Source: a virus
Virus record (IMG/VR): IMGVR_UViG_3300023210_000015
Span: 1-64,000 of that record
DNA: 64,000 bases
Reading direction: 5' to 3' (one strand)
The notes below the pieces were generated by a model, which saw only the letters and a program-made list of their open reading frames with translations, was not told the origin of the DNA and made no database searches. This document shows positions 26,024 through 26,876 of the stretch, in pieces (within the stretch, counting starts at the first letter, position 1; each line of letters starts with the position of its first letter). The translations under genes were made by a program, and so were the position numbers.

Positions 26024-26085
26024 GCCGCTTGTTCCGCATTGAAGTCTGTAAACACTGAAACACACTAATATGCGGATCAGGTTTT
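26024..26085 (+). pseudogene. Truncated, degenerate tRNA-Tyr-like RNA (5' part)
   Basis: Same layout as the 26719 copy: TCCGCAT/ATGCGGA pairing and a CTGTAAA loop; no T arm before the HNH gene. Confidence 0.45.
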
Positions 26086-26129
26086 TCCGAAATATTATAT
26101 GGCAAATTAATATTTAAGGAGAAATCTAT

Positions 26130-26708
26130 ATGATACACAAAAAATGCAAAGAATGTAATAAAGATTTTACAGCCAGAGGGAATAATAGAAAATTTTGTAG
26201 TCGTCATTGTGCCGGAAAATATAATTATAATAAATTCAATAAACTCAATACTAGAGATTCGAGAGAAAAACAACGCACAGTTATGAAACAGAAATTTGCA
26301 AAAGACAAAGTTTTTAGGCAAAAAACAATTGATAAACTTAAAAAATGGAGACAAGAAAATCCTGATAAAATATTGCGTGGAGAAAAATTGTCAAAGCTTG
26401 TTGGAAATGCAACGAAGGGAAAGTATAATCTTTTTCCTAAAAATATTTATGATATGAGTGGTCGTACTCGTCAAAAAGTTATTCAACGTTTGAGATTGTC
26501 GTGTTTCAGATGTGAATGGAATGAGGGAACATGCGATTTACATCATATTCACGGCAAAAAAATTGAAGACTGTGACAATCACTGTAACCTAGTTGTTTTA
26601 TGTCCTAATTGTCACCGTTTGGTACATAATAATAAAATTATACTTGATAAAATAAAAACCTTTGAAGAATTAGTTGGAACAAAGTGGTTAGAATTTTATT
26701 ATGGTTAA
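26130..26708 (+). CDS. HNH endonuclease
   Basis: CKEC..FCSRHC; CFRCEW...DLHHIHG...NHCNLVVLCPNCHRLVH. Confidence 0.85.
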   Translation: MIHKKCKECNKDFTARGNNRKFCSRHCAGKYNYNKFNKLNTRDSREKQRTVMKQKFAKDKVFRQKTIDKLKKWRQENPDKILRGEKLSKLVGNATKGKYNLFPKNIYDMSGRTRQKVIQRLRLSCFRCEWNEGTCDLHHIHGKKIEDCDNHCNLVVLCPNCHRLVHNNKIILDKIKTFEELVGTKWLEFYYG

Positions 26709-26718
26709 TGATGTACTC

Positions 26719-26810
26719 GGGAGGCGTTCCTGTTACGAGATTGTAAATCTCGCGCCCATTATCAATAAGACAGGTCGGTTGGGCAAGTGGTTCGAATCCT
26801 CCGTCTCCCA
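26719..26810 (+). tRNA. Atypical D-arm-less tRNA-Tyr(GTA)-like RNA
   Basis: Acceptor GGGAGGC/GTCTCCC-A; CGAGA-TTGTAAA-TCTCG; TTCGAAT T loop; D arm replaced by CCTGTT pairing with GACAGG in the variable-arm loop. Confidence 0.65.
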
Positions 26811-26820
26811 TTGTCCCGTA

Positions 26821-26876
26821 GCCCATTATAATGATGTGCGGTGGTCGGGCGGGTGGTTCAATTCCTCCAGCCAGCA
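26821..26876 (+). pseudogene. 3' half of another tRNA-Tyr-like copy
   Basis: GCCC...GTGCGG...GGGC-GGGTGG-TTCAATT-CCTCC-AGCCAGC-A parallels 26754-26810. Confidence 0.5.

Follow-up and report, generated by a model that had tools for sequence, protein, structure and literature searches.

A gene that we considered, with a probability of about three in four, to encode a functional elongator tRNA-Tyr(GUA) whose conserved scaffold is not a cloverleaf was found in a 64,000-nucleotide stretch of viral DNA (the window), which was the first 64 kb of the 109-kb IMG/VR virus record IMGVR_UViG_3300023210_000015. In this gene, hereafter copy B, covariation among homologs supported a predicted pseudoknot, where a helix formed with the loop of the variable arm would take the place of the D stem. 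Judged from sequence, well over a hundred tRNA arrays of phages and bacteria have conserved this design, and the evidence for its function as a tRNA was circumstantial but coherent. Since CheckV rated the 109-kb record as 23% complete, the virus is a very large phage. Copy B was the sole full copy of the scaffold in the record, and it was accompanied in the window by two fragments, copies A and C.

The pseudoknotted fold and its conservation

The initial annotation, made from the sequence of the window alone, had described copy B as lacking a D hairpin and having CCTGTT paired with GACAGG inside the loop of a GCCC/GGGC stem, a perfect anticodon arm with GTA, and A73. This layout was right to the base (the coordinates are given in Table 1). 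Because just nine nucleotides (TT CCTGTT A) separated G8 from the anticodon stem, a D hairpin was impossible in copy B. The two strands of the helix that we termed S1 (CCTGTT, S1a; GACAGG, S1b) were complementary at six of six positions, with five Watson-Crick pairs and one G-U pair. The stem of the variable arm, S2, kept all four of its pairs, but its loop was tied into S1. In bacterial tRNA-Tyr, the free long variable arm is read by the C-terminal domain of the tyrosyl-tRNA synthetase in a set orientation. Pairing was also complete in the anticodon stem (5/5), which closed a seven-nucleotide loop where position 33 was U and position 37 a purine, and in the acceptor stem, where a possible eighth pair (G26726 with C26802) brought the total to 8/8 including one G-U. 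The A at 26810 corresponded to A73 and CCA was not encoded. Since CCA was likewise unencoded in all 11 ordinary tRNAs of the window, its absence from copy B was normal for this genome. The established identity set of bacterial tRNA-Tyr consists of A73, G34-U35, G1-C72, and a long variable arm (PMC9976931). All the elements of this set that can be read from a sequence, namely A73, the GUA anticodon, and G1-C72, were present in copy B.

Shuffling of the variable region of copy B gave an equally good complement to CCTGTT in 13% of cases (p about 0.13), as could be expected if S1 were a chance complementarity in a tRNA that simply lacked its D arm and whose long variable hairpin was ordinary. Therefore, the significance of S1 had to come from the family rather than from the window. 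Family members were collected with an anchor pattern that combined only GTTCC and TGTAAA with the T loop and put no constraint on the proposed S1 pairing. Matching stretches numbered 99 in IMG/VR and 116 in one-genome-per-species bacterial contigs, and the layout of copy B was common to nearly all of the viral matches and to approximately 60 genes from bacterial tRNA arrays. Almost without exception, the 74 distinct phage genes had seven of seven acceptor pairs and A73. In covariance-model alignments of 75 phage genes and of a replicate set of 58 distinct genes from bacterial arrays, S1 was paired in 96.9% and 96.0% of cases, respectively. Four of the six S1 pairs varied on both sides in the phage and bacterial sets alike, the remaining two pairs corresponding to the CC that the search pattern imposed. 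For example, one of these pairs was represented in the phage genes by UA (33), CG (16), AU (9), GU (9), and GC (5). The S2 helix, which was 95.3% paired in the bacterial genes, covaried as well, its middle pair being CG in 46, GC in 8, and UA in 6 phage genes, and UA in 35, CG in 13, and GC in 6 genes from the bacterial arrays. Moreover, covariation was observed in the seven outer acceptor pairs and in all five pairs of the anticodon stem. When the partners in the phage alignment were slid by one column, pairing over the whole structure fell from 93% to 47-50%, and shuffled controls never reached the observed values.

Since S1b sits within the S2 loop and both helices covary, S1 and S2 together were predicted to form a pseudoknot. 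Thus, the topology read from the window by the initial annotation was supported in two independent collections, where the pairing between the 5' strand and the variable loop was conserved with double compensatory changes. With no shuffled or slid control coming near the family values, and with fragment A keeping the helix in a different sequence, a chance origin of S1 was refuted at the family level, and we gave it an almost negligible probability.

The family genes were 83-93 nucleotides long, and the D hairpin was lacking in all 133 aligned genes. From 5' to 3', the acceptor strand with G8 was followed by UU (26727-28 in copy B), the six nucleotides of S1a, usually one G or A, and the anticodon arm. 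Next came usually a U, S2a of 3-4 nucleotides, a spacer of 6-10 nucleotides (93% A/U), S1b, and UGG; then 0-3 bases, S2b, a linker of 2-3 nucleotides, and a T stem of 4 bp. The UGG directly after S1b was not imposed by the search pattern, and its three bases were found in 72, 72, and 75 of the 75 phage genes. G1-C72 was present in 73/75 and A73 was nearly universal. One of the outer two pairs of the T stem was often a U.U mismatch (16 and 30 of the 75 genes for the two positions).

The T loop and the acceptor pairing of copy B had been correctly recognized before, but in place of the proposed acceptor stem of 7 bp, an 8/4 division of the acceptor/T limb reads better than 7/5. The pair between G8 and its C was G-C in 74/75 phage and 55/58 bacterial genes, and the 7/5 alternative was pairable in about 16% of genes, or one in six (column 74 was G in 12/75). 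Therefore, the 7/5 division was dropped, and 8/4 appeared to be the better reading on the ground of invariance. A sixth pair in the anticodon stem, formed by the flanking G.U, was rejected as well: it was pairable in 86-91% of genes, no better than in shuffled sequences.

Copy B scored 66.8 bits on the phage-family covariance model. Because it was one of the 73 seed sequences of that model, an independent model was built from bacterial genes only, with the window excluded. On the latter, copy B scored 60.1 bits (E 3.4e-12), and the ordinary tRNAs of the window did not exceed 15.4 bits. The same gene was unreported by ARAGORN in both default and relaxed modes, the Rfam tRNA model RF00005 (gathering threshold 29 bits) gave no match to it even at E values up to 10, and its best Rfam match was tRNA-Sec (19.9 bits, E 0.5). 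This blind spot extended to the family. Namely, ARAGORN recognized 1 of the 74 phage scaffold genes, and the Rfam tRNA model recognized 0 of the 8 checked (copy B and 7/7 other loci). At locus L004, one tRNA ended at 5444 and the next started at 5548; the scaffold gene between them filled positions 5455-5540, which was exactly the slot that Rfam skipped. Thus, the two standard scanners used did miss the fold, as the initial annotation had predicted, and the tRNA counts obtained with these tools for large phages and bacterial arrays may miss a real tyrosine tRNA. Additionally, when the locus and two family genes were compared by blastn with 50,697 deposited phage genomes, full-length matches were absent, and the hits were limited to anticodon-arm pieces of ordinary tRNA-Tyr.

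Tyrosine slots in tRNA arrays and the functional reading

The genomic context of the family was that of tRNA genes. Another tRNA was located within 300 nucleotides of 58/74 phage and 57/61 bacterial scaffold genes, always on the same strand, with a median gap to the neighbor of 11 nucleotides in phages and 9 nucleotides in bacteria. CCA was encoded in 56/74 phage copies. According to ARAGORN, the 73 phage array loci were rich in other tRNAs (Met in 70, Glu in 54, Asp in 48, Trp in 29, and Phe in 28), and a canonical tRNA-Tyr was present in just 7 of them. Therefore, the scaffold gene appeared to hold the Tyr slot of these arrays.

The bacterial matches belonged chiefly to Planctomycetota. Among them, Lacipirellula limnantheis I41 and Schlesneria sp. 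T3-172 were represented by complete chromosomes, each with exactly one scaffold gene inside an array of 25-40 tRNA genes. In the Planctomycetota sample, at least 5 of 101 genomes had a match, with part of the candidates scored. Both complete genomes also had a canonical tRNA-Tyr, so that in neither was the scaffold copy the only tRNA-Tyr. We conclude that the scaffold is an accessory, array-borne, and patchily distributed tRNA-Tyr and not the only tRNA-Tyr of a lineage.

With an anticodon-free pattern, scaffold genes having 7/7 acceptor and 6/6 S1 pairs were also found, in other phage arrays of tRNA genes, with the TCT and CCT (Arg), TAT (Ile), and CCA (Trp) anticodons; thus, the scaffold was not Tyr-specific. 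These members scored 47.7-68.8 bits on the Tyr-trained model and had discriminator bases of their own, and S2 was less clear in the Arg group. A second Tyr subgroup was characterized by the loop CTGTAAC. As a separate observation, two phage contigs bearing the scaffold in tRNA arrays contained a permuted transfer-messenger RNA (Rfam RF04321; 121 and 134 bits) at L056:9944-10298 (-) and L251:5802-6088 (-).

We propose the following sequence of events for copy B. It would be excised from a transcript and then receive its CCA. As judged from helix lengths, the 6-bp S1 would stack on the anticodon stem and give back the normal length of the D/anticodon limb, and the linker of 2-3 nucleotides between S2 and the T stem would cross the S1 groove like the variable loop of a normal tRNA. 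UGG could stand in for G18-G19 at the elbow, so that the L shape would be kept. The tyrosyl-tRNA synthetase (TyrRS) could then charge the molecule by means of A73, G1-C72, the GUA anticodon, and the variable-arm-like helix, and the charged tRNA would read UAY codons during infection.

Alternatively, copy B could be a tRNA-shaped RNA acting outside translation. As a decoy or sponge, it might occupy tRNA-cutting defense nucleases or factors that bind tRNAs; otherwise, it might be a regulatory RNA. It is known that the PtuAB nucleases of Septu and retron-Eco7 stop phages by cutting the variable arm of tRNA-Tyr (PMC13096335, PMC11555353), and it is precisely this D/variable region that the scaffold has rebuilt. 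Moreover, an overexpressed phage tRNA-Tyr partly shields the host tRNA-Tyr (PMC13096335), and a normal tRNA-Tyr was also present in the two checked planctomycete genomes. However, the features needed for translation were all conserved in the family (the 8+4 bp limb, U33, A37, GUA, A73, G1-C72, and the encoded CCA), and the scaffold took the Tyr slot in arrays covering other amino acids. The Arg, Ile, and Trp anticodons with their own discriminators also looked like a decoding scaffold and not like bait for a Tyr-directed nuclease. Thus, we considered a role outside translation to be improbable and favored the elongator tRNA-Tyr.

The same nucleases might explain why an elongator tRNA was rebuilt in this way. 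The resistance of the T5 tRNA-Tyr has been ascribed to its distinctive variable loop (PMC13096335), and it is plausible that a locked variable loop combined with a missing D arm provides a structural escape from tRNA-Tyr nucleases. As for the motive of the design, the rebuilt D/variable region might have been selected because it removes the cut site of tRNA-Tyr-directed defense nucleases, a suggestion that we hold at rather less than even odds. A broader and tentative proposal, to which we would give still somewhat less credence, is that the scaffold could define a natural class of non-cloverleaf tRNAs, the first in bacteria and their viruses, one that is active on the ribosome, serves several amino acids (mostly Tyr, but also Arg, Ile, and Trp), and is kept by its invisibility to PtuAB-type nucleases.

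A number of observations spoke against copy B as a functional elongator. No full-length Tyr member was more divergent or lower-scoring (66.8 bits in comparison to a family median near 86), and copy B had a one-base insertion (UCGG) where the family had UGG as well as an 11-nucleotide spacer. Its S2 had 4 bp, and UCGG was shared with the locus L033, which was also the only match to a copy B-specific pattern. Copy B was located 5.4 kb from the other tRNAs of the phage, beside a selfish element and outside any array. No TyrRS gene was found in the 109 kb of the record, and a canonical tRNA-Tyr may sit elsewhere in the phage genome, given that the record is about 23% complete. The canonical tRNA-Tyr of both planctomycete genomes was part of a housekeeping Thr-Tyr-Gly-Thr cluster. 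In structural terms, the near-invariant G8:C pair had almost no variation and hence no covariation, and the elbow role of UGG likewise rests on invariance and not on covariation. Finally, the nuclease-evasion motive was purely inferred.

The rearranged locus around copy B

The locus had the order of fragment A, HNH endonuclease gene, intact copy B, and fragment C (Table 1). The Pfam search with the HNH protein gave a weak NinG match only, and no terminator was found after copy C. The initial annotation had treated the three copies as members of one RNA family; in fact, they did not represent three genes: only copy B was intact, and copies A and C were decayed fragments around the HNH gene and copy B.

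Table 1. Coordinates of copy B, its surroundings, and scaffold genes from other loci (positions without a prefix refer to the window)
Feature	Location	Strand	Remarks
Copy A	26024..26090	+	Remnant of a second allele (5' two-thirds), decayed; CTGTAAA loop and S1 kept; S1 TCCGCAT (26033-39) / ATGCGGA (26070-76)
HNH endonuclease gene	26130..26708	+	192 amino acids; PHROG 1271 (E 5.6e-10), also phrog_740 and phrog_8048
Copy B, complete non-cloverleaf tRNA-Tyr(GUA) candidate	26719..26810	+	92 nucleotides; last base is the discriminator A73
Copy B acceptor 5' strand	26719..26726	+	GGGAGGC + G8; partner 26802-26809; GGGAGGC (26719-25) with GTCTCCC (26803-09)
Copy B S1 5' strand	26729..26734	+	CCTGTT, at the usual start of the D stem; partner GACAGG (26769-74)
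Copy B anticodon arm	26736..26752	+	CGAGA (26736-40) / TTGTAAA / TCTCG (26748-52); anticodon GTA 26743-45
Copy B variable arm	26754..26784	+	S2 stem GCCC (26754-57) / GGGC (26781-84); loop with A/U-rich spacer (26758-68), GACAGG (26769-74), and TCGG (26775-78)
Copy B T arm	26787..26801	+	Loop TTCGAAT, of the GTTCRANYC type; 4-bp stem GTGG/CCTC (26787-90/26798-801) with T.T mismatch
Copy C	26820..26876	+	3' fragment from S2a to A73; phage-family model 20.4 bits; bacterial model 19.9 bits, model positions 36-78 only
tRNA array with scaffold tRNA-Tyr, Lacipirellula limnantheis I41	G001:C1:5955540-5960638		Long array; scaffold gene at G001:5957110-5957196
tRNA array with scaffold tRNA-Tyr, Schlesneria sp. 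T3-172	G002:C1:826319-830830		Long array; scaffold gene at G002:828567-828653
Arg TCT scaffold genes	L244, L246, L255, L267, L274, L301, L305, L314		
Other non-Tyr scaffold genes	L273; L239; L073:3512-3600		Arg CCT; Ile TAT; Trp CCA, respectively

Copy A retained GTTCC and an S1 with 7/7 pairs, which was matched by 0.3% of shuffled sequences (p 0.003). Its anticodon stem was broken, and the T arm and the 3' acceptor strand were gone. Since its covariance score (7.6 bits) was not significant, its kinship to the family rests on the 7-bp S1 and on the half pattern GTTCC-N9-13-TGTAAA, which occurred within the 64 kb in copies A and B only. For the segment 26027-26082 (+) of copy A, a long hairpin was predicted at -19.2 kcal/mol (z -3.16), approximately 50 nucleotides upstream of the HNH start codon. 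This hairpin may have been retained for HNH expression instead of as a tRNA.

Copy C consisted of an S2 (GCCC/GGGC), an S1b-like GTGCGG (26836-41), UGG, a T arm (GTGG/TTCAATT/CCTC), the acceptor strand AGCCAGC, and a final A. Both features reported for it before, GTGCGG at the equivalent position and the same T.T mismatch in the T stem as in copy B, were seen on the sequence. GTGCGG differed by one base from the ATGCGG of copy A. Since it would pair with the CCGCAT of copy A, copies A and C look like the remains of one allele. In comparison to copy B, this A/C allele differed at three S1 positions on both sides; thus, the internal covariation claimed for copies A and B was real. A split gene, or a group I intron carrying the HNH open reading frame, was considered and rejected: there was no upstream D arm, copy A had its own S1b, copy B was complete in itself, and the 5' acceptor strand of copy A paired with the 3' strand of copy C at just 5/7 positions.

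This arrangement bears on the possibility that copy B is a dead relic, in which a rearrangement driven by the homing endonuclease scrambled a tRNA-Tyr and left three pseudogenes. Such an origin would be in line with the position of copy B next to the HNH gene and between two obvious fragments, outside the tRNA clusters of the phage, as well as with its lowest score and the insertion in UGG. However, the layout covaried in more than 130 genes elsewhere, so it was not made by a local rearrangement. Moreover, every helix was whole in copy B, which still reached 60 bits on the model from which it had been excluded, whereas the truly decaying copies A and C had lost arms. We therefore regarded the relic as an unlikely explanation.

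Under the preferred reading of copy B as an elongator tRNA-Tyr, it would travel locally with the HNH homing endonuclease, and copies A and C would be remnants of an older resident allele that was broken by the HNH/copy B cassette. A second locus of the window had a parallel organization, with an intact tRNA and an HNH gene between fragments. Namely, a tRNA was split in its anticodon loop into a 5' half (21141-21181) and a T arm with the acceptor strand (22046-22073), and the ends pair at 6/7 acceptor positions. Between them were a complete tRNA-Gln(CTG) at 21181-21256 and an HNH gene at 21332-22045 (PHROG 10822, E 1.2e-40). We infer that, at both loci, a homing-endonuclease cassette has broken the resident gene and carries, or has preserved, an intact tRNA. 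The locus of copy B, where an HNH gene is found with an intact copy and two broken ones, would illustrate how homing endonucleases reshape a tRNA locus. A search for relatives of the phage with a neighboring protein found no related locus, and an ancestral locus free of the endonuclease could not be reconstructed. Elsewhere in the window (37888-41466, +), a gene for the large subunit of ribonucleotide reductase was broken by an intein, in which Pfam identified a LAGLIDADG endonuclease domain; this intein represents a further selfish element.

Significance and comparison with known systems

It was stated in 2024 that every known bacterial tRNA is a cloverleaf (PMC11551756). If our reading is true, the scaffold would be a natural counter-example to this statement. 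A 2020 review of non-canonical tRNAs did not mention a pseudoknot or a phage or planctomycete case, and the surveys of bacterial tRNA arrays made no mention of the scaffold. In the full-text literature that we searched, with subscription journals outside that search, the fold was undescribed. The scaffold would offer a test of how far RNase P, the CCA-adding enzyme, TyrRS, EF-Tu, and the ribosome need a cloverleaf. For structural escape from immunity directed at tRNAs, it provides a concrete candidate that can be tested, and it could serve as a ready-made orthogonal tRNA chassis.

The scaffold resembled the canonical class II tRNA-Tyr(GUA) in its anticodon, U33, A37, A73, G1-C72, a T loop of the TPsiC type, a helix in the variable region, a total length of approximately 85 nucleotides, and a place in tRNA arrays. 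In contrast to the canonical form (RF00005), it had neither the D stem-loop nor G18-G19, its D-stem-like helix was predicted to be made with the loop of the variable arm, its limb was better read as 8/4 than as 7/5, and it fell below the Rfam threshold.

Pseudoknot-based mimicry of tRNA is known from the tRNA-like structures of plant viruses, such as turnip yellow mosaic virus (TYMV) and brome mosaic virus (BMV), and the BMV element is tyrosylated. However, in TYMV and BMV the pseudoknot forms an acceptor arm at the 3' terminus of the genomic RNA, and these elements neither decode as free tRNAs nor use an anticodon in the standard way.

Also similar in some respects were the (8/4) and (9/3) allo-tRNAs, which are similar to tRNA-Sec, and the phage (8/4) tRNA-Ser and tRNA-His described by Mukai et al. 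in 2017 (PMC5389517). They share with the scaffold a 12-bp limb (divided 8/4 in the preferred reading of the scaffold), a long variable arm, a D-type helix of 6 bp, and occurrence in phage tRNA gene clusters. However, all of them are cloverleaves with a D hairpin (a long stem and a tetraloop), none is a tRNA-Tyr, and no pseudoknot was described for them. The D-armless mitochondrial tRNA-Ser(AGY) of metazoans and the armless mitochondrial tRNAs of nematodes (PMC4013460, PMC7609411) also have no D hairpin and have a short connector in its place. Unlike the scaffold, the mitochondrial forms lose the helix, turn floppy, and need adapted partners; in the scaffold, the helix appeared to be rebuilt from another strand with the total length kept, and the hosts were bacteria and phages.

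With respect to the locus, a parallel was provided by the defense-evading tRNA-Tyr of phages T5 and T6 together with SegB (PMC11555353, PMC13096335). In both cases, a phage tRNA-Tyr has an altered variable region. As in T6, where SegB drives a partial tandem duplication of the tRNA-Tyr region (PMC13096335), a free-standing homing endonuclease was found alongside partial tandem copies of tRNA-Tyr. The two systems differ in that the T5 and T6 tRNAs are cloverleaves, and SegB is a GIY-YIG endonuclease, whereas the gene next to copy B encoded an HNH enzyme.

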